Below are positions 3,017-63,742 of a stretch of DNA of 64,000 nucleotides, in pieces (position 1 is the first letter of the stretch; every line of letters begins with the position of its first letter). The notes beneath the pieces were generated by a model that was given only the letters and a program-made list of their open reading frames with translations, had not been told where the DNA came from and made no database searches. Origin of the DNA: Candidatus Magasanikbacteria bacterium RIFOXYC2_FULL_42_28 (GTDB lineage Bacteria > Patescibacteriota > Patescibacteriia > Magasanikbacterales > GWA2-37-8); the NCBI GenBank assembly GCA_001784435.1, contig MFQZ01000009.1, positions 11,324 to 75,323 on the forward strand, read 5' to 3'. The translations under genes and the position numbers were made by a program.

Positions 3017-4114
3017 CTACTCCGTCTCCCGCCAATCACCAACCACTTTTTTAATATCATCACTATCCACCACGAGCACCCCCATCGCCTCGGCCTGCTT
3101 TTCCAAATCCTCGCGCCGTTTGGTTAACGCCTCGGATTTTTTAGCATAAATTTTGCGATCTAATTCTTGAATTTCACTCCATAATTTAGCGGCTTCGGGA
3201 TATTTTTCACTGGCGGTTTTAAATAAGATGGCCGGCACATCGGGGTGGACATGCGACACTTTCACCATCGCACCCGATTCATCAACCACATCCAACGCCT
3301 TGTCCGGCAAACGACGCGACACAATATATTTTTGCGATAGTTTCACGGCCGCGTCAATCGCGGCATCGGTAAATTCCACTTTGTGAAATTCGCGATAGCG
3401 GTCTTTGACATTTTTTAAAATGCCGATGGTCTCGGCCTCGGTGGGCTCCCTCACTTCTACCGGCTGAAACCGACGTTCCAAACTGGCATCGGTTTTAATA
3501 TATTTTTCATATTCTTCCGGAGTGGTGGCGCCAATCATTTGTAAATCCCCGCGCGCCAAAGCCGGTTTTAAAATATCAGAAAAATTTACCGCGCCTTCGG
3601 TGCCATGCGACTGAATGATAGTATGAATTTCATCAATAAATAAAATTATCCGCCGATCAGCCCGACAAACTTCGTCAATAATTTTTTTCGCGCGCTCTTC
3701 AAATTCCCCGCGATATTTGGTACCAGAAAGCAGACCGGCGACATCCAATGATAACAACCGGTCGCCCTGTAAATGTTCCGGTACTTGTTTTTTAACAATT
3801 AAAGACGCGAGCCCTTCGACGATGGCAGTTTTGCCCACGCCCGGCGCGCCAATTAAAATGGCGTTGTTTTTTTCCCGACGCGACATCACCTGCGCCAAGC
3901 GCGTAATTTCATCTTCGCGCCCCACGACCGGATCCAAACGATTGGCCGCGGCCAAAGCAGTGAAATCCACGGTAAAAGTGGCCAGTATATCCGCGCCACC
4001 TTTTTTAAAACTGAATCCACCGCCTTCTTTGCCTTTTTTAGTGGCAAAATAAATTAAGCCGATGACAACCGCTATTAACGGGCCGACAAAATATGAATTT
4101 AACATAAATACCAA
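3017..4114 (-). CDS. Membrane-anchored AAA+ ATPase with a single Clp/Hsp100-type D1 domain
   Basis: An N-terminal TM helix is followed by VVGREDEITRLAQVMSRREKNNAILIGAPGVGKTAIVEGLA (the ClpA/B/C D1 Walker A region), Walker B IILFIDEIH, and a coiled-coil tail. It has no D2 domain. Confidence 0.7.
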   Translation of the reverse strand: MVFMLNSYFVGPLIAVVIGLIYFATKKGKEGGGFSFKKGGADILATFTVDFTALAAANRLDPVVGREDEITRLAQVMSRREKNNAILIGAPGVGKTAIVEGLASLIVKKQVPEHLQGDRLLSLDVAGLLSGTKYRGEFEERAKKIIDEVCRADRRIILFIDEIHTIIQSHGTEGAVNFSDILKPALARGDLQMIGATTPEEYEKYIKTDASLERRFQPVEVREPTEAETIGILKNVKDRYREFHKVEFTDAAIDAAVKLSQKYIVSRRLPDKALDVVDESGAMVKVSHVHPDVPAILFKTASEKYPEAAKLWSEIQELDRKIYAKKSEALTKRREDLEKQAEAMGVLVVDSDDIKKVVGDWRETE

Positions 4115-4121
4115 AAAATGA

Positions 4122-5108
4122 TTAATCTTTTTTTGCTTCTGATTCAGATAGTTTTTCCCGCGCCCCTACTGCGTCAAATACCGGTTTTACATCCGGATCA
4201 TCTAAATCCATCCCTTCAATTTTACTGCGCACGATGGCGTTCCAAACATCAGTCTCACTCATTTTTAAATATTGGGCCATACCAACAATTACTTCATCCA
4301 AAAATTTTCTTTCCTTTTTATAACCATCATTAACCTCCAAAATATCCAGAACATCCTTAACCGTTTGGGGAGCATATGTTTCCCCATGGCAACGCAATAA
4401 ATACTTTTTCATTATGTCCCTAGTCAATCGTTCAGTAACAGCCTCATCAAACAATCTAAACCTCGAACTTGAAGAGCCCTGAGTTCTATCGTGTTCTGAA
4501 TAACCCCCTCTTGATTTACCCAAACGCACCGGCACCATACCATCTAACATATGTTCTATCACCCAAGCCGCCGCTCTTTTAACTATTGAATCAATCTTTT
4601 GTTCTTCTAAGAGATTATATGAAATAGCGTGAACTTTTTCGTGAATCATTGTATGTAAAACATTAGCAAACATCAAATTCTCATCAACAATCAAATGTCC
4701 TTTTGTTTTTTGCTTTTGACCGCCCTGAATCCAGGCCTTCGCAACCAAAAGCTTGGCATCCAAAAAAATTTTATTAGCGTGAGGGGAATAAAATCCATCA
4801 AAAGCGCTCCCACTTTCTTCCAGCTTTTTAAAATCTTCCACTACAACTTCGGCTTCGTTAAAATTTAATTTCTCTGGACTAACACCACTTTTCGCGCCAA
4901 TTTCTTCAAAAATATTTTGCAGTTCAACCATATTAACTCGTGACAAAAATTCCTCAACCGCTTTTGACCACACCTCAAATGAGCTCCTGTCTGATTTTTC
5001 AGTAAATAATCTTTCACGAACCGGCTCCTCTGCTTGGTCAAGCAAAGTTTGAAATCTTTCCGGTTGCATTGGCCGGCCACGAAAATCAATTATCTCTCTC
5101 GGACTCAT
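4122..5108 (-). CDS. Hypothetical protein with an HExxH zinc-metallopeptidase motif
   Basis: 328-aa ORF containing HTMIHEKVHAISYN. It ends 8 nt upstream of the AAA+ gene on the same strand. Confidence 0.45.
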   Translation of the reverse strand: MSPREIIDFRGRPMQPERFQTLLDQAEEPVRERLFTEKSDRSSFEVWSKAVEEFLSRVNMVELQNIFEEIGAKSGVSPEKLNFNEAEVVVEDFKKLEESGSAFDGFYSPHANKIFLDAKLLVAKAWIQGGQKQKTKGHLIVDENLMFANVLHTMIHEKVHAISYNLLEEQKIDSIVKRAAAWVIEHMLDGMVPVRLGKSRGGYSEHDRTQGSSSSRFRLFDEAVTERLTRDIMKKYLLRCHGETYAPQTVKDVLDILEVNDGYKKERKFLDEVIVGMAQYLKMSETDVWNAIVRSKIEGMDLDDPDVKPVFDAVGAREKLSESEAKKD

Positions 5109-7055: not shown

Positions 7056-7176
7056 AATGTCAAATTTCCAATTTCCAATGTCAAACCAAATCCAAATTTC
7101 AAATAACAAATACCGAATTTGACATTTTTACTTTGACATTGATTGGAAATTGGAAATTTGGATTTTGAAATTATCA
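7056..7176 (+). repeat. Long palindromic AATTTCCAATTTCCAATGTCAAA...TTTGACATTGGAAATTTGGATTTTGAAATT element (family 2)
   Basis: ~120 bp imperfect hairpin starting 8 nt after the rlmH stop. Four other copies occur at 12119, 19341, 43964 and 62441. Confidence 0.7.
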
Positions 7177-7247: not shown

Positions 7248-7395
7248 ACTTCGCTAATTTTAGCCAAAAAATATTTTCGGCAATAAAAAACTAAATTTGT
7301 ATACACAAGCGTATACAAATTTTTTGATATTTTAAACACTTTTAATCAATAATTTGGCTAATATATAACAAAAACTGCTCGCCTGCCCCACCCCC

Positions 7396-12118: not shown

Positions 12119-12228
12119 TGACAAATGTCAAATTTCCAATTTCCAATCAAATCCAAATTTCCAATATCAAATTAGACATTTTGATTTTGACATTGATTTG
12201 ACATTGGAAATTTGGATTTTGAAATTAT
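12119..12228 (+). repeat. Family 2 long palindromic element
   Basis: TGACAAATGTCAAATTTCCAATTTCCAATCAAATCCAAATTTCC...TTTGACATTGGAAATTTGGATTTTGAAATTATCAC. It lies in the divergent intergenic region and ends 6 nt before the pbp start. Confidence 0.7.
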
Positions 12229-19340: not shown

Positions 19341-19452
19341 AATGTCAAATTTCCAATTTCCAATGTCAAATCAAATCCAAAGCTCAAATTACGAATTTGA
19401 CATTTTGATTTTGACATTGATTTGACATTGGAAATTTGGATTTTGAAATTAA
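19341..19452 (+). repeat. Family 2 long palindromic element
   Basis: AATGTCAAATTTCCAATTTCCAATGTCAAATCAAATCCAAAGCTCAAATTACGAATTTGACATTTTGATTTTGACATTGATTTGACATTGGAAATTTGGATTTTGAAATT. It starts 2 nt after the rnpA stop and ends 1 nt before the yidD ATG. Confidence 0.7.
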
Positions 19453-36187: not shown

Positions 36188-38905
36188 ATGAAGAAACTTG
36201 TTATTATAGATGGGAACGCAATAATACATAGGGCCTATCACGCCATTCCGCCCATGAACACCAAAAACGGGATGATGGTCAATGCGGTGTATGGGTTTAC
36301 TTCCATGTTGTTGCGCGTTTGGAAAGATTTAAAGCCGACACATATTGCCGTCACTTTTGATATGCGCGGTCCGACTTTTCGGCATGAAAAATTTAAGGAA
36401 TACAAAGCCACGCGCGTGAAAGCGGATCAGGAATTGTATGATCAGATTCCTTTGGTGCACAATGTTGTTCGTGCTTTTAATATTCCGATTTATGAAAAGG
36501 CCGGTTATGAGGCCGACGATGTGATTGGCACGGTCGCTCGCATGGTAGAAAATAAAAAAGAGGTTGAGACGTATATTGTGACGGGTGATAAAGATACTCT
36601 ACAGTTGATTGAGCCAGGGGTGAAAGTTTTTACCTTGCGTAAAGGGATGAGTGATACGGTAATTTATGATGCCGAGGGTGTAAAAGAAAAATTTGGATTT
36701 TTACCGGATAAAATGGTGGATTACAAAGCGCTGGCCGGTGATGCGTCGGATAATATTCCGGGGGTGCCGGGGGTGGGAGAGAAGACGGCGACAGATTTGA
36801 TTCAGAAGTTTGGGGGGATTGATGAGATTTATGATAATATCAAAAATCAAAAATCAAATATCAAAGATATTAAGGCGGGTGTCTTGAAAAAATTGATTGA
36901 CGGCGAAGAGTCGGCGCGGATGAGTTTTGAACTTGCGACGATTGACCGCAATGTTCCGGGGGTGGATTTTAAGTTGGAAGATTGCGTGGCAAAAGAATTT
37001 GACCGCGAGAAAGTGGTTAAGATTTTTCAGGAGTTGGAGTTTATGTCGTTGTTGAAGCGTTTACCCGGCGAAGCATTAGCGAAGACGGGGTTGCCGGGGG
37101 CGAGTGGGGATGGAGATCCCTCGCTTGACACTCGGGATGACAAACAAAAAAAAGTCCGAGCGAAATTTAAAGTTGATGAAATAAAGACAAAAGATGAAGT
37201 TGAGAAATTAGTTGAGCAGATTCGTAAAACAAAATCATTTGCCTGCCGTGAGGCCACGGCTGGACGTGAAGTTTATAATTCAGAATTGTTTGGTGTGGCG
37301 GTTATTGTTTCTGGCGCCGGATATTTTATTAGTGAAAAATTATTAAAAGAATTTTTGCCGGTATTTGAATTTTCGGATTGTGAATTCGTTGGTCATGATT
37401 TAAAACAGTTAATCAAAATTTTAAAACTGCAGGGCGTGGAAATAAAAAATAAATTGTTTGACACGATGATCGCGTCGTATCTGCTGGAACCGGGCAGTCG
37501 GGCGCATGACAGCGCCAGTATTGTTTTGAAAGTGTTAGGCCAAGAATTACCAGCCGGTGCCGGGCAGAATAGTTTGTTTGGGGCGGATATGCTTGCGGTA
37601 ACACAAGAATTATACCAACTATCTTTGGCGGCCGAAAAATTAAAAAAAGAATTAGTCGCGATTAGCGATTTTGGTTTAATGGAAAAAATAGAGATGCCAC
37701 TTTTGCCGGTCCTCGCGCAAATGGAATTAAACGGTATTGCCGTGGATTTAAAATTACTACAAAAATTATCCGAACAAGTGACGGCGGAAATTAAAACCGT
37801 GAGCGCGACTATTTTTAAATTGAGTGGAACGGAATTTAATATCTCGTCGCCGACACAATTGCGCGAAGTGCTGTTTGAAAAAATGGAAATTCCAGTGGAA
37901 GGAATTAAAAAAGGCAAAACCGGTTTGTCCACTTCTGCCGAACAGTTAGAAAAATTGCGCGGTCAACACCTAATCATTGAACATATTGAAAATTATCGCG
38001 AATTGGAAAAATTGCGCAATACCTATATTGATGTTTTGCCGACTTTGATAAATAAAAAGACCGGTCGGATTCACACCACTTTTAATCAGGCGGTCGCGGC
38101 GACTGGGCGCCTGTCATCGTCTGATCCAAATTTACAAAATATTCCCATTCGCACGGAGTTGGGGCGCAAGATCCGCAAGGCCTTTGTGGCCGAAGATGGC
38201 AATGTGCTTATTTCCGCCGATTATTCGCAAATTGAATTGCGCGTGGTGGCATCACTCGCCGAGGATAAAAAAATGATGGAAATTTTTGAGGCTGGTTTGG
38301 ATATTCACGCGGCGACAGCAGCGGCGATAAATCATGTGGATTTAAAAGATGTTACCAAGGACATGCGTCGCGCGGCCAAGGAAGTAAATTTTGGCGTGTT
38401 GTATGGCATGGGCGCATATGGCTTGGCTTGGCGGGCCGATATTCCCCAGTGGCAAGCCAAAGATTTTATTGATAAATATTTTAGTGAATTTAGTGGTGTG
38501 AAAAAATATTTAGACGCGACTTTGGAATTTACCAAAAAAGAGGGATACTGCGAAACACTGTTTGGTCGGCGCCGGTATATTCCGGAATTAAACGCCAGCA
38601 ACCACCAATTGCGGATGGCCGGCGAACGGATGGCGATTAATCATCCGATTCAGGGGACGGCCGCGGATTTGATTAAGATGGCGATGATAGAAATATCAAA
38701 ATGTAAATATCAAAATGAAAAATTATTGAGCGACGATGTGCGAATGATATTACAAGTGCACGACGAATTGGTGTTTGAAGTAAAAAAAGAATTGGCTGAT
38801 GAAGTCGGTAAAAAGGTAAAAGAAATTATGGAGGGTGTGGCCAAATTGCGCGTGCCGATTGTGGTGGAGGTGAATGTTTCTAAAAGTTGGGGGGAGATGA
38901 AATAA
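36188..38905 (+). CDS. polA: DNA polymerase I (5'-3' exonuclease, 3'-5' exo-like and polymerase domains)
   Basis: 905 aa. The polymerase motifs are RRAAKEVNFGVLYGM (motif B) and QVHDELVFEV (motif C). The N-terminal FEN-like domain is present. Confidence 0.9.
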   Translation: MKKLVIIDGNAIIHRAYHAIPPMNTKNGMMVNAVYGFTSMLLRVWKDLKPTHIAVTFDMRGPTFRHEKFKEYKATRVKADQELYDQIPLVHNVVRAFNIPIYEKAGYEADDVIGTVARMVENKKEVETYIVTGDKDTLQLIEPGVKVFTLRKGMSDTVIYDAEGVKEKFGFLPDKMVDYKALAGDASDNIPGVPGVGEKTATDLIQKFGGIDEIYDNIKNQKSNIKDIKAGVLKKLIDGEESARMSFELATIDRNVPGVDFKLEDCVAKEFDREKVVKIFQELEFMSLLKRLPGEALAKTGLPGASGDGDPSLDTRDDKQKKVRAKFKVDEIKTKDEVEKLVEQIRKTKSFACREATAGREVYNSELFGVAVIVSGAGYFISEKLLKEFLPVFEFSDCEFVGHDLKQLIKILKLQGVEIKNKLFDTMIASYLLEPGSRAHDSASIVLKVLGQELPAGAGQNSLFGADMLAVTQELYQLSLAAEKLKKELVAISDFGLMEKIEMPLLPVLAQMELNGIAVDLKLLQKLSEQVTAEIKTVSATIFKLSGTEFNISSPTQLREVLFEKMEIPVEGIKKGKTGLSTSAEQLEKLRGQHLIIEHIENYRELEKLRNTYIDVLPTLINKKTGRIHTTFNQAVAATGRLSSSDPNLQNIPIRTELGRKIRKAFVAEDGNVLISADYSQIELRVVASLAEDKKMMEIFEAGLDIHAATAAAINHVDLKDVTKDMRRAAKEVNFGVLYGMGAYGLAWRADIPQWQAKDFIDKYFSEFSGVKKYLDATLEFTKKEGYCETLFGRRRYIPELNASNHQLRMAGERMAINHPIQGTAADLIKMAMIEISKCKYQNEKLLSDDVRMILQVHDELVFEVKKELADEVGKKVKEIMEGVAKLRVPIVVEVNVSKSWGEMK
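37109..37144 (+). mobile_element. Family 1 repeat half-copy embedded in-frame in polA
   Basis: ATGGAGATCCCTCGCTTGACACTCGGGATGACAA translates as GDGDPSLDTRDDK, in the linker between the 5'-exo and 3'-exo-like domains. Confidence 0.55.
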
Positions 38906-43000: not shown

Positions 43001-43963
43001 ATGATTATATTTATACACGGCCCCGACACCTTTCGGAGCCGGCAATATTTAAAAGAACAAGTGGAGAAATTTAAAATTGCCCGCGATCCACAGGGGTATA
43101 ATGTTGTGTTTGCGGACGCGGTGAGCGACGAGCCGGGGAAAATTTTAGGGGAGATTTCCAGCGCGCCGTTTTTGGCAGATAAGAGAATGATTGTTGTAGA
43201 AAATATTTTGGCATGCAAGGATAAGGATTTTATGGCTACGCTCATTGAAATGGTAAAAAATAATAAAGTGCCGGAAAGTAATGTTGTTTTGTTTTGGCAA
43301 GGCGAAGATAAATCAAAAATAAAAGAAGTGGATGAATTGGATAAATTATTGAAAAAAGAAAAATACGCGAAAGAATTTGATATGTTAACGGGCGCGCAAT
43401 TGTCCGTTTGGATAAAACAGGAATTTGTTAAATCAAAAGCGACTGTCAGTATGCCGGCGTTAAATTTTTTGGCGCAGAACGCGGGTGGTGATATGTGGCG
43501 ATTGTCGTCTTTAATCGCGCAATTGTCGGCCTATGCCACTGGGCGCGAGGTCGGCGTGGAAGGTGTAAAATTATTTTTGGATGAAAAGGTTGATGATAAT
43601 GTTTTTAATATGGTGGAAGCGGTCGTGTCGGGCAATCGTAAGCAGGCGTATAAATTATTAACCGAGCAAAGGCGGTTAGGCGAAGAGGACGGAAAATTAT
43701 TTGGTTTGATATTGTGGCAATTTCGGATTTTGGTGAATTTAAGGTCGTTGTTTGAAACTGAAGATAATTTAACGGCTGATCAAATGGCTAAACAACTTGG
43801 TTTGCATCCGTTTGTCGTGAAAAAGAATTTGGCACTGGTAAAACGAATGAGCTCGGCACGCTTAAAAGAAATTTACGAGATGCTTTTGGATATTGATAAA
43901 AAAATAAAAACCGGGCGGGGGGACTTGGGGTTGTTGGTTGATGTGCTGGTGGGACGCTTATGA
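43001..43963 (+). CDS. holA: DNA polymerase III delta subunit
   Basis: 320 aa with the HolA N-terminal fold IFIHGPDTF...FLADKRMIVVEN and a C-terminal helical domain. Confidence 0.75.
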   Translation: MIIFIHGPDTFRSRQYLKEQVEKFKIARDPQGYNVVFADAVSDEPGKILGEISSAPFLADKRMIVVENILACKDKDFMATLIEMVKNNKVPESNVVLFWQGEDKSKIKEVDELDKLLKKEKYAKEFDMLTGAQLSVWIKQEFVKSKATVSMPALNFLAQNAGGDMWRLSSLIAQLSAYATGREVGVEGVKLFLDEKVDDNVFNMVEAVVSGNRKQAYKLLTEQRRLGEEDGKLFGLILWQFRILVNLRSLFETEDNLTADQMAKQLGLHPFVVKKNLALVKRMSSARLKEIYEMLLDIDKKIKTGRGDLGLLVDVLVGRL

Positions 43964-44066
43964 ATGTCAAATTTCCAATTTCCAATGTCAAATCAAAGCC
44001 AAAATGACAAATTTGACATTTTTATTTTGACATTGATTGGAAATTGGATATTTGGATTTTGAAATT
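43964..44066 (+). repeat. Family 2 long palindromic element
   Basis: It starts immediately after the holA TGA as AATGTCAAATTTCCAATTTCCAATGTCAAATCAAAGCC...TTTGACATTGATTGGAAATTGGATATTTGGATTTTGAAATT. Confidence 0.7.
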
Positions 44067-44101
44067 AGTAAAGTCAGACACATACAGAAGCTTGAGTTTA
44101 A

Positions 44102-61255: not shown

Positions 61256-62407
61256 ATGTCTTTTTCCATCGGGATTGTCGGATTGCCAAATGTCGGTAAA
61301 TCAACTTTATTTAATGCTTTGACGCGCAGTAAGCAAGCGGACGCTGCCAATTATCCTTTTTGCACTATTGATCCGAATGTGGGCGTAGTCGCGGTTCCGG
61401 ATGAGCGGTTAGCAAAGTTATCCGAAATTTCTAAATCAAAAAAAATTATCCCAACGGTGATTGAATTTGTGGATATTGCCGGTTTGGTAAAAGGCGCGAG
61501 CGAAGGCGAGGGTTTGGGTAATAAATTTTTATCACATATTCGCGAAGTGGACGCCATCGCGCAAGTAGTGCGCGCGTTTTCGGATAGTAATGTTATTCAT
61601 GTGAATAATAAAGTGGACCCAAAGAATGATAGCGAGGTGATTAATTTAGAATTGGCGTTGGCGGATTTACAAGTTGTTACCAAAAGATTAAGCACTGCCA
61701 AAAAAGATACCAAAGGTTCGGTGGCAAAAGACAAAGAAAAAGAAATTGAATTATTGACAAAAATTAATGCCCAGCTCGAGGCCGGCAAACCGGCGCGCGC
61801 GTTAGAATACAATGATGATGAAAAAATAATTTTAAAAAAATTACAGCTGTTGACAGCCAAACCGATGTTGTATGTGGTGAATACTGACGAAGGGGGCGGA
61901 ATTTCACCAATTGTTACTCCGACGACGAAGGAGGAATCTCTATCCCAATTGATTGCCAATGGAGATCCCTCGTCCCGACTAAGTCGGGAGTCCTCGCTCG
62001 GGATGACAACGCAAATAAACGTTTGTGCCAAGTTGGAAGCGGAATTGGCAGATTTGAGTGTGGAGGAAGCCAAAGAATATTTAAAAACTGCTGGCATTAC
62101 CGAAACCGGTTTGGATAAATTAGTTGTCGCCAGTTACAAATTATTGGATTTAATAACTTTTCTAACTTCGGGCGAACCGGAAACGCGCGCTTGGACGGTA
62201 AAAAATGGCGCGAGGGCCCCGGAAGCGGCCGGAGTCATTCACACGGATTTTATCAAAGGTTTTATTAAAGCCGATGTTTGTGACTGGCAAGATTTTGTTA
62301 CGCACCACGGTTGGTCAAAAATAAAAGAAACCGGAAAACTCCGATTAGAGGGAAAAGATTATGTCGTGAGAGATGGAGATGTTGTGTATTTCCATGTTAG
62401 TACCTGA
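61256..62407 (+). CDS. ychF: Ribosome-binding ATPase YchF (Obg family) with a repeat-derived insertion
   Basis: IGIVGLPNVGKSTLFNALT, NYPFCTIDPN and the C-terminal TGS domain (VVRDGDVVYFH). It is 383 aa, against ~363 aa typical for YchF. Confidence 0.85.
   Translation: MSFSIGIVGLPNVGKSTLFNALTRSKQADAANYPFCTIDPNVGVVAVPDERLAKLSEISKSKKIIPTVIEFVDIAGLVKGASEGEGLGNKFLSHIREVDAIAQVVRAFSDSNVIHVNNKVDPKNDSEVINLELALADLQVVTKRLSTAKKDTKGSVAKDKEKEIELLTKINAQLEAGKPARALEYNDDEKIILKKLQLLTAKPMLYVVNTDEGGGISPIVTPTTKEESLSQLIANGDPSSRLSRESSLGMTTQINVCAKLEAELADLSVEEAKEYLKTAGITETGLDKLVVASYKLLDLITFLTSGEPETRAWTVKNGARAPEAAGVIHTDFIKGFIKADVCDWQDFVTHHGWSKIKETGKLRLEGKDYVVRDGDVVYFHVST
61911..62009 (+). mobile_element. Family 1 repeat, full copy inserted in-frame in ychF
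   Basis: TTGTTACTCCGACGACGAAGGAGGAATCTCTATCCCAATTGATTGCCAATGGAGATCCCTCGTCCCGACTAAGTCGGGAGTCCTCGCTCGGGATGACAA is 96% identical to the 10871 copy and translates as IVTPTTKEESLSQLIANGDPSSRLSRESSLGMT. Confidence 0.65.
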
Positions 62408-62551: not shown

Positions 62552-63742
62552 CTATACTTTTTTGAACCTCCAAATCTCCCGCCCTACTCGCTGTCCCGGC
62601 CGGCCATACAACAAGTATGGCTTTTTTTGTTGAAGCGAGACCGTTTTAAATCCTAAATTATTTATTTCCGATTCGCAATTAATCGTGATCCACTGCCCGC
62701 GTGAAAAAAAACGGGGAATAATAAAAATTACTGTGCCATCTTTTTTTAACAATTTTGTAAACGCGCGAAAAGCATTTAAATACAAGGTTTTTAATTCGCC
62801 AACTTGTAATCGTAACTCGCTTTCGCTTTCACGTCCGGTTAATGGTTTTCCTAAATATGATTCGGTGATGATTGTGTCAATTGAATGGGGTTTTATTTTT
62901 TTCTCTAAATTATCAATATCAATATTGTAAATTGGAAATTGAGAATTGATTGGAAATTTGAAATTTGAAATTGGAAATTGCCGTGCCGTCCACTCCACAT
63001 TTTTTCGTGTATCCGCTATCGCTTTTTCAGATATATCACTCCCGATTAAATTTTTATAACCCAAAATCATCGCCTCGGTCAAAATTGTCCCCGAACCACA
63101 AAATGGATCGAGCAAGGTCGCGTCCAAATCTGCTTGCGCCAAATTTATCATCATCATCGCCAACTTCGGCGGCAACATGCCCGAAAAATCATCGCGTCCC
63201 GGTCGTCCAAAGTCGCGCGCGCCTAATTCTTCAAACGGTTGAATGGCAATTGTTTTGGCCAAAGCAAAACCGTCAGCAGTTTTGGTGATTAAAAACTCCC
63301 GTCCTTTAGTAGTGAGTTGGTTGTGAAATACGGTTGCCGAAGATAACTGGTTATGTTCATCGCTCGGCACATAACGCACTGACAGGCCATTCTTTTTCAA
63401 TTCTTTTTTTATGTCCAAGGCAAATGGCTTAACGCCAATTTGTCCGGACTTATCATATAAACTGATGCCAAAATGGATTTTGCCGGTAATGGTTTGCAGT
63501 TCTGCAATAATTTTTTCTTTTAATTCGTTTTCTGTTAATTCCGAGCCGACCTCTTCGGCGATCTTAATTGTTCCGCCTAAACGTTTAATTAAATCGGTTT
63601 CCACGGCCGTATTAATTTTTAAAATATTTTCCGCCAAAAATTTAACCGCTTCATTTGGTAATTTTAAAACCGTGGTGATTTCCGCCGTGGATATTTCCGG
63701 TTCTCGTCCTAAAACAAACCAAGTGAAATTATTTTTTTTCAT
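62552..63742 (-). CDS. THUMP-domain RNA methyltransferase (Trm14/RlmL/TrmN-like, class I SAM MTase)
   Basis: The N-terminal THUMP-like region is followed by SAM motif I LLDPFCGSGTIL and the catalytic region. The ATG is at 63742. Confidence 0.65.
   Translation of the reverse strand: MKKNNFTWFVLGREPEISTAEITTVLKLPNEAVKFLAENILKINTAVETDLIKRLGGTIKIAEEVGSELTENELKEKIIAELQTITGKIHFGISLYDKSGQIGVKPFALDIKKELKKNGLSVRYVPSDEHNQLSSATVFHNQLTTKGREFLITKTADGFALAKTIAIQPFEELGARDFGRPGRDDFSGMLPPKLAMMMINLAQADLDATLLDPFCGSGTILTEAMILGYKNLIGSDISEKAIADTRKNVEWTARQFPISNFKFPINSQFPIYNIDIDNLEKKIKPHSIDTIITESYLGKPLTGRESESELRLQVGELKTLYLNAFRAFTKLLKKDGTVIFIIPRFFSRGQWITINCESEINNLGFKTVSLQQKKPYLLYGRPGQRVGREIWRFKKV
62925..62990. repeat. 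Family 2 repeat fragment (GGAAATTGGAAATT units) embedded in-frame in the methyltransferase gene
   Basis: AAATTGGAAATTGAGAATTGATTGGAAATTTGAAATTTGAAATTGGAAATT encodes QFPISNFKFPINSQFPIYN on the minus strand. Confidence 0.45.

Follow-up and report, generated by a model that had tools for sequence, protein, structure and literature searches.

The window analysed here, a 64,000-nucleotide (nt) stretch of DNA from Candidatus Magasanikbacteria bacterium RIFOXYC2_FULL_42_28 (contig MFQZ01000009.1), carries a degenerate tandem array of heptanucleotides inside the coding frame of a Trm11-like methyltransferase gene, and syntenic orthologues of this gene at 45–80% identity bear four to five heptamer units, several of them in perfect arrays. 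The array is probably an old heptanucleotide microsatellite, homogenised by slippage, that resides in a permissive edge loop of the Rossmann-like fold and whose reading frame has been kept by compensated insertions and deletions (indels); the case shows that microsatellites of non-triplet units can survive, in frame, inside a conserved protein. The initial annotation had regarded the segment as units of Family 2, a palindromic repeat dispersed between the genes of the window. Judged by the orthologous sequences, that origin is wrong, and the array would be a long-lived, orthologous feature of the gene itself. The features of the host gene are as follows.

62552 to 63742, minus strand: host methyltransferase gene, an open reading frame (ORF) of 396 amino acids (aa), Trm11/TIGR01177-like, with a THUMP-type N-terminal part and a Rossmann-fold methyltransferase domain
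63086 to 63115, minus strand: S-adenosylmethionine (SAM)-binding motif I, LLDPFCGSGT, residues 210–219
62990 to 62992, minus strand: codon of the conserved Trp251 (N-x-x-W, end of helix αB), invariant in the alignment
62924 to 62980, minus strand: degenerate heptanucleotide tandem array, encoding QFPISNFKFPINSQFPIYN, residues 255–273
62849 to 62866, minus strand: motif IV equivalent, TESYLG, residues 293–298, end of strand β4

On the coding strand, the array reads AATTTCC, AATTTCA, AATTTCA, AATTTCC, AATCAAT, TCTC, AATTTCC and AATTTAC, i.e., about eight AATTTCC/AATTTCA units, degenerate and read in frame. Tandem Repeats Finder assigns 62924–62980 a period of 7 with 8.6 copies, 77% matches and a score of 58, and a 28-nt core (62953–62980) departs at most once from perfect 7-nt periodicity. 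With up to two mismatches allowed, GGAAATTGGAAATT occurs 29 times in the window, five of these matches falling at 62927–62979, against 2.46 ± 1.5 expected; none of 100 shuffles reached 29, so the repeat signal is real and well above chance. The ORF translation contains QFPISNFKFPINSQFPIYN, in agreement with the initial annotation that a run of repeat units is read in frame inside a methyltransferase gene. Of its coordinates, 62925–62990, the end overruns the repeat by a few bases, into the Trp251 codon region. It places the segment just downstream of SAM motif I, which holds loosely, the segment beginning 36 residues past motif I, after β2 and helix αB.

The methyltransferase gene is convergent with ychF, and this arrangement is syntenic in the orthologues, which shows that the array-bearing genes are orthologous. 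Their arrays, listed by locus, are the following.

L085, the closest relative (80% aa identity): (AATTTCC)x4.7, more perfect than the window array
L001, L002, L086 and L121: (AATTTCC)x4.4
L006: (AATTTCC)x5
L007: (AAATTTC)x4.7
L049: (CAATTTT)x5
L009: (ACTTACA)x5
L095: (AGTTACA)x4
L008: AAGCTAC/T
L013: (ATTGGAA)x4.7
L003, L087, L099, L010, L011 and L020: decayed arrays

Array position is nearly constant in these loci, the array starting 12–14 nt past the Trp codon in all array-bearing orthologues, with L013 one unit earlier (6–7 nt). The units themselves are lineage-specific but akin to one another (AATTTCC, AATTTCA, AATTTTC, AACTTAC, AAGTTAC, AATTGGA and others), and most of them read AAnTnnn in a common register. 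In our own reading of the register table, neighbouring variants lie one substitution apart (AATTTCC, AATTTCA, AATTACA, AGTTACA, ACTTACA/AGCTACA), and AATTTTC and AATATCC are further single-substitution variants. At the protein level, the array site of the orthologues holds heptamer-like peptides such as FPISNFQFPI, FQISNDKFQIK, FSISNSQFSIN and SYKLQVTSYK. The first of these, encoded by (AATTTCC)x4, stands at the same position in L001, L121 and L006; L085 has it too, in a different register. The peptide is thus conserved in loci from which Family 2 is absent, the very observation that the initial annotation had named as the one that would speak against its own reading.

Two comparisons illustrate how the array behaves in evolution. 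L001 and L006 share 49% protein identity, and where their residues agree the codons coincide in 45% of cases. Along the array, however, 11 codons are identical in the two, for which the expectation is about 0.22^11; such codon sharing fits either selection or a homogenisation by which new mutations are erased. Alignment of the window with L085 requires a 2-nt gap upstream of the array and a 10-nt gap inside it, such that the two array registers lie 2 nt apart and the stretch between the indels is read in different frames (ISNFQFPISN versus FPISNFKFPI). The frame difference does no harm, since a heptamer array encodes circular permutations of a single 7-aa peptide in its three frames. None of the genic units contains a stop in any coding-strand frame, and AATTTCC belongs to the 15% of AT-rich heptamers without a stop on either strand. 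All arrays found, about 25 across DNA loci and protein representatives, are in frame.

The periodicity is nearly confined to one part of the gene. In a codon-aligned profile of 48 orthologues, measured in 35-nt windows, 7-nt periodicity of at least 0.75 occurs only at window residues 250–270 (7–8 sequences), apart from one sequence near residue 200. In a protein-only test that counted peptides (8 aa or longer) for which a heptamer array could be the exact coding sequence, such peptides were present in the loop in 7 of 120 close matches and in 9 of 146 representatives of 50% clusters, with one further case in a second loop; about 93% of the family members have no array. The array-free orthologues show only a loose pattern at the site, an aromatic residue followed by alternating hydrophobics (e.g., YNLKNINANIF), which looks like a decayed array.

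In the AlphaFold model of the host protein, built with 35 homologues as input (mean predicted local distance difference test score (pLDDT) 88), helix αB spans residues 239–255, a coil spans 256–270 with pLDDT below 50 at 259–266, and strands β3 and β4 cover 271–273 and 288–294, respectively. The array-encoded segment covers the end of αB, the low-confidence loop and the start of β3. The proposal in the initial annotation that repeat DNA can be tolerated inside an ORF, here in a surface loop, is supported by this predicted low-confidence loop. From Trp251 to motif IV, most orthologues have 36–38 aa, whereas the window protein has 42 aa; its loop thus exceeds the family norm by 4 residues (12 nt), and the segment is not a clean insertion. 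Strand β3 is an edge strand in class I methyltransferases, and in archaeal/eukaryotic Trm11 β3 and its surroundings bind Trm112. By analogy, the position fits a partner-free bacterial enzyme, which would leave the β3 edge exposed and tolerant.

Other repeat DNA occurs in the same loop. GC-rich repeat-like insertions occupy it in 7 of 47 metagenome orthologues, and the view that the methyltransferase loop is a family-wide hot spot for repeat DNA is supported. In L130 (about 4517–4620), the loop carries a 25-nt unit, composed of AATTTTC plus a small GC palindrome CCCGACCGCGGGGCAAGC, exactly three times (75 nt) and in frame, a further non-triplet unit held at a multiple of three. A second methyltransferase loop, between the helix PPKLAMMMINL and strand β1, carries heptamer arrays in L105 (1666–1691) and in P0132 (residues 190–198); the unit in P0132 is GGAAATT (GNWKLEIGN).

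A protein homologue search matched the host protein at 100% identity with P0001, which is annotated as hypothetical in Candidatus Magasanikbacteria bacterium RIFOXYC2_FULL_42_28, and among the candidates scored, 4973 homologues with E values up to 1e-10 are found in the ultra-small bacteria of the Candidate Phyla Radiation (CPR). The host protein matches Pfam PF01170, an RMKL-like methyltransferase domain, with an E value of 8e-12, and archaeal Trm11 chains in the PDB are among its sequence matches. The top Foldseek matches of the model are the archaeal Trm11 m2G10 tRNA methyltransferases 6zxw, 6zxy and 5e71 (E 4e-20, template modelling (TM) score 0.76), followed by the THUMP-containing enzymes Trm14, TrmN and RlmL. 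These predicted-structure matches support a Trm11-like (THUMP-fold) methyltransferase at the level of the fold. The Joint Genome Institute label “tRNA G10 N-methylase Trm11” is an automatic annotation, and the score against NCBIfam TIGR01177, 70.7 bits, lies far under the family cut-off of 316.55. The name “THUMP methyltransferase” used by the initial annotation therefore stands at the level of the fold match to Trm11, but a Pfam THUMP domain was not found in the host protein at E values up to 0.1. The catalytic motif IV of Trm11, D/N-P-P-Y, is likewise not found in the host protein, which has TESYLG in its place. Across the whole CPR family the consensus is T-E-[PS]-Y-L-G (TEPYLG), whereas Trm11 has D-P-P-Y; from the motif sequence, this suggests a catalytic chemistry or a substrate other than m2G formation.

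Period 7 stands out beyond the methyltransferase gene, as the one period in excess in the CPR genomes sampled. A survey of 834 kb of CPR loci, with arrays defined as at least 3.7 copies with at most one mismatch, yielded 19 arrays of period 7 against 0–2 each for periods 5, 6 and 8–15; a second set of 424 kb gave eight against 0–2 for other periods, and 500 kb of non-CPR loci gave no period-7 array. About half of all period-7 arrays fall in the methyltransferase loop. The same array behaviour recurs in the YchF loop that follows KPxLYVxNxDE, where TCCGAAA stands four times in L112/L113 and TCCCAAA in L001/L086, arrays are present in L118 and L087, and decayed forms are found elsewhere. In the window, L003 and L102, a GC-rich insert takes the place of the array in this loop. 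The window insert lies at 61892–62011 (ychF, 61256–62407, plus strand) and is GC-rich, repeat-like and in frame, encoding YchF residues 213–252 (GGGISPIVTPTTKEESLSQLIANGDPSSRLSRESSLGMTT); the L003 and L102 inserts are related to it and sit in the same loop.

Taken together, we favour the following course of events. The microsatellite would lie at a fixed and ancient coding position, the link between helix αB and the edge strand β3, with its repetitiveness upheld by concerted evolution, through slippage during replication or template switching within the array, so that point mutations would be erased before fixation and a unit replacement would now and then sweep through the whole array. Slips of a single unit shift the frame and would be removed, or rescued by nearby compensating indels, and selection would hold the array to four to five units and to the reading frame. 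The array would be tolerated because its units are stop-free in all three frames, because these frames are circular permutations of one 7-aa peptide with alternating hydrophobic residues, and because such a hydrophobic pattern suits a helix end, a turn and an edge strand. The window copy would be a partly decayed array, 4 residues over the family norm, and the Family 2 palindromes would be a separate, genome-specific elaboration sharing the AATTTCC unit.

Several observations weigh against this account. Copy-number polymorphism was not seen where it could be checked. The array of P0003 is unchanged in the three independent samples L001, L002 and L086, which form one species-level cluster; as the array is identical in all three, active slippage is something we infer rather than observe. 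In a rough neighbour-joining tree, arrays appear in at least four clades, and ancestral presence with decay and repeated birth at a permissive site both fit the tree. Because the second-loop arrays of L105 and P0132 are confined to single lineages, de novo births do happen. The persistence of AATTTCC at 46–49% protein identity, together with the reverse-complement unit on the coding strand of L013, could reflect nucleic-acid selection or exchange with dispersed repeats. Lastly, a 22/23-nt match to Family 2 that includes the non-heptamer ATTGATT junction makes gene conversion into the extra 12 nt of the window copy possible. A metagenome scan with a single protein returned no match above 56% identity, and microevolution was followed in two pairs, window/L085 and L001/L121.

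An unlikely alternative is that the array is selected as a nucleic-acid or peptide signal, i.e., a binding platform with a 7-nt footprint on mRNA or single-stranded DNA, a pause or frameshift site, or a peptide motif. The strikingly steady copy number of four to five units, the survival of an identical unit through about 50% protein divergence and the opposite orientation of the unit at the same site in L013 speak for such a signal. The in-frame L007 unit, A-AAT-TTC, fits the X-XXY-YYZ form of −1 frameshift slippery sites. Binding of one protein per heptamer is discussed for cold-shock proteins (PMC4679880). Yet the units vary widely by lineage (AACTTAC, AAGCTAT, CTACTCC, AAATCTC and others), so that there is no common sequence signal; about 93% of the family lack an array and have only the loose hydrophobic pattern; the window copy is decayed; and a constraint on loop length explains the constant length equally well. 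The slippery pattern is restricted to one unit type, and a programmed −1 frameshift site was rejected because only AAATTTC of L007 fits X-XXY-YYZ in frame and the other units fail.

The second alternative, that a piece of the dispersed Family 2 was inserted or gene-converted into the gene and tolerated in frame like a Rickettsia palindromic element (RPE), appears improbable. Five Family 2 copies lie in the window, for which no strand is assigned.

7056 to 7165: Family 2 copy, starting 8 nt past a stop codon
12124 to 12225: Family 2 copy, directly upstream of a 967-aa ORF
19341 to 19450: Family 2 copy, starting 2 nt past a stop codon; hairpin of −39.7 kcal/mol, z −6.9
43963 to 44070: Family 2 copy, starting at a stop codon
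62440 to 62548: Family 2 copy between the convergent ychF and methyltransferase genes; two-armed hairpin, separate from the genic array

These elements, about 110 bp each with a mean column identity of 73%, are built from AATGTCA/TGACATT and AATTTCC/GGAAATT units in their arms; the left arm runs AATGTCA, AATTTCC, AATTTCC, AATGTCA, AATCAAA and so on, and the right arm is complementary. They fold as long AT-rich hairpins with energies between −33 and −40 kcal/mol and z scores from −5.2 to −6.9. Four of the five start 0–33 nt past the upstream stop codon, and the fifth (12124–12225) lies directly upstream of a gene. The hairpins are candidate terminators or mRNA stabilisers, or may be elements resembling miniature inverted-repeat transposable elements. 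A Family 2 role as promoter or terminator was considered and set aside: TTGACA strings are present, yet their counts in a simple scan are near the shuffle expectation. L001 contains an intergenic palindrome at 7265–7365 made of AATTTTC/AATTTAC/AATTCAC units, a counterpart of Family 2 from a different Magasanikbacteria-like genome; L001 is the only locus with a Family 2-like intergenic palindrome, and the units of this palindrome are slightly different.

Several features connect the genic segment with these elements. Its AATTTCC and AATTTCA units match arm units, the five copies per 64 kb include one that stands 4 nt past the stop codon of the gene, and by manual comparison, the segment shares 14 nt exactly, and 22 of 23 nt (ATTGATTGGAAATT...), with the right arm of the copy at 7056–7165. 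Furthermore, the 12 nt by which the window loop exceeds the family norm correspond to a AATCAATTCTC extension, some Family 2 copies have one fully open reading frame, and the loop has accepted other repeat insertions in other lineages. However, orthologues without Family 2 have an array at the same codon position, often a more perfect one, and loop length and pattern are homologous throughout the family. The segment represents a single arm, lacks AATGTCA/TGACATT units and forms no hairpin, with 62900–62990 folding at only −7.2 kcal/mol (z +0.38, versus −5 to −7 for Family 2). It lies 372 nt inside the ORF, whereas all five copies are intergenic. Family 2 diagnostic strings are absent from all 140 fetched orthologue loci, dimers of the own genic unit are absent from the 10–20 kb flanks of the seven array-bearing loci searched, and in L085 no intergenic element separates the abutting methyltransferase and ychF genes. 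The claim of the initial annotation that Family 2 units are embedded in the gene finds no support in view of the single arm, the missing hairpin, the surplus of only 4 residues and the arrays of orthologues without Family 2. Orthologue arrays without Family 2, no hairpin and no own-unit dimers in the flanks searched led us to reject a Family 2 insertion for the array as a whole, which we regard as largely refuted. A related idea, that the genic array pairs in the mRNA with the downstream Family 2 hairpin, was discarded as well: the 35-nt complementarity of 80% follows from the shared units, and L085 has no downstream element.

A more speculative view, to which we give little credence, holds that the arrays in the permissive loops of the methyltransferase, YchF, PolA and the O-antigen-ligase-like proteins are not passive products of slippage but a maintained nucleic-acid signal of 7-nt periodicity, perhaps serving a protein reader with a 7-nt footprint or as the preferred landing site of the GC-rich palindromic repeats found in these loops in sister lineages. 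If true, the arrays as landing sites would be the entry point of repeat DNA into CPR proteins. Phase variation of a contingency locus, in which slipped-strand mispairing of the 7-nt repeat toggles the methyltransferase, is very improbable: a one-unit slip would shift the frame, 7 not being a multiple of three, and phase-variable methyltransferases under simple-repeat control are known in other bacteria, but every one of the roughly 25 arrays is in frame, array length is the same in three independent samples, the tracts are short (4–5 units) and that of the window imperfect, no OFF alleles were found, and the sole truncated homologue, L133, is explained not by a slip but by a fusion or chimera with its break upstream of the loop. 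In L133 (457–3540), the N-terminal ~236 methyltransferase residues form an in-frame fusion with a large membrane protein, probably in a chimeric contig or through a rearrangement.

Arrays also occur in genes other than those of the methyltransferase and YchF. In the window, an ATCAAAA heptamer array at 36836–36865 encodes DNIKNQKSNIKDIK in frame in DNA polymerase I (PolA, 36188–38905, plus strand); save for the methyltransferase array, the window has no other array of period 7 that reaches 21 nt with at most one mismatch. Orthologous O-antigen-ligase-like membrane proteins carry three arrays in L007 (16747–18045; CTTATTG, AGTTACA, TTATTCC) and two in L008 (13984–15291; ATACTTT, CAATTTT), two of which stand at matching positions in the two loci with different units. 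In L035, three different heptamer arrays fall within 320 nt (3691–4008) of an EpmA/lysyl-tRNA-synthetase-like gene (3304–4491, minus strand).

Reading the arrays as a slippage-homogenised microsatellite corrects a natural misreading, since what appears to be a dispersed repeat within a gene is an orthologous and long-lived gene feature. It presents a natural case of a non-triplet microsatellite in frame in a conserved enzyme across deep bacterial lineages, in which the unit is exchanged over time at a constant position and length. The case bears on the preference of bacterial tandem repeats for period 7 (the polymerase-footprint idea), on how compensated frameshifts reshape protein loops and on which positions of a Rossmann-fold methyltransferase are freely variable. 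For the annotation of CPR genomes, low-complexity peptides such as FPISNFQFPI, SYKLQVTSYK and NPKSEIRNPK flag heptamer arrays, not sequencing errors or foreign insertions. Literature searches turned up no paper that treats heptamer arrays, or repeats read in frame, in CPR/Patescibacteria.

Among known systems, the genic array resembles most closely the heptanucleotide simple sequence repeats (SSRs) of bacteria, of which the tandem heptanucleotides of cyanobacteria are called short tandemly repeated repetitive (STRR) sequences. According to passages of PMC4692102 and PMC4679880, heptanucleotide repeats are in excess among bacterial SSRs, with polymerase slippage as the proposed cause, and a 2007 survey, as summarised there, found heptamers over-represented. 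Known examples are those of Calothrix PCC 7601 (PMC4692102), GGGAATC in Xanthomonas, GGGGA(T/C)T in Nostoc and TAACTGA in Beggiatoaceae (PMC4692102, PMC4679880), and coding regions are described as favouring units in multiples of three (PMC4679880). The genic array has the properties of this class, namely tandem 7-nt units above chance, a period-specific excess and a change of register between close relatives. As in the known SSRs, 7-nt units stand head to tail and period 7 is in excess over neighbouring periods; units vary among related genomes at conserved locations, slippage being the proposed cause; and the known repeats are sometimes paired as inverted repeats, as are the Family 2 palindromes of the window. 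Unlike them, since they are overwhelmingly intergenic, the array lies in frame inside a conserved enzyme gene, at a fixed codon position across 45–60% protein identity and with 4–5 units throughout.

RPEs are palindromic insertions of 100–150 bp that are absent from orthologues. A review (PMC10969869) describes RPEs and other miniature inverted-repeat elements inserted in frame in protein-coding genes. The likeness is that repeat-derived DNA is translated within a functional protein, at its surface and distant from the active site; the difference is that the genic segment is a one-armed tandem array, lengthens the protein by only 4 residues and has counterparts at the same position in orthologues. 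It is neither a clean insertion of the RPE kind, orthologues having positionally homologous or decayed arrays, nor a dispersed palindrome, as it forms no hairpin and dimers of its own unit are absent from the flanks of seven other array-bearing loci. Better analogues of RPEs are the GC-rich inserts in the methyltransferase loop of L103, L105 and L110 and in the window ychF. With phase-variable contingency genes (SSR-driven phase variation is summarised in PMC4692102), the array has in common a tandem repeat inside the gene with a unit length that is not a multiple of three; it differs in that no out-of-frame alleles were found, that the tract is short and constant in length, and that the host is, by its sequence, a putative conserved housekeeping-type RNA methyltransferase of free-living or episymbiotic groundwater CPR bacteria. 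The host protein itself shares with archaeal/eukaryotic Trm11 (6zxw, 6zxy, 5e71) the overall fold (TM 0.76), motif I and an N-terminal THUMP-like module, and departs from it in its sequence identity of ~20%, a TIGR01177 score of 70.7 versus 316, the T-E-[PS]-Y-L-G motif IV and the lack of a Pfam THUMP match.

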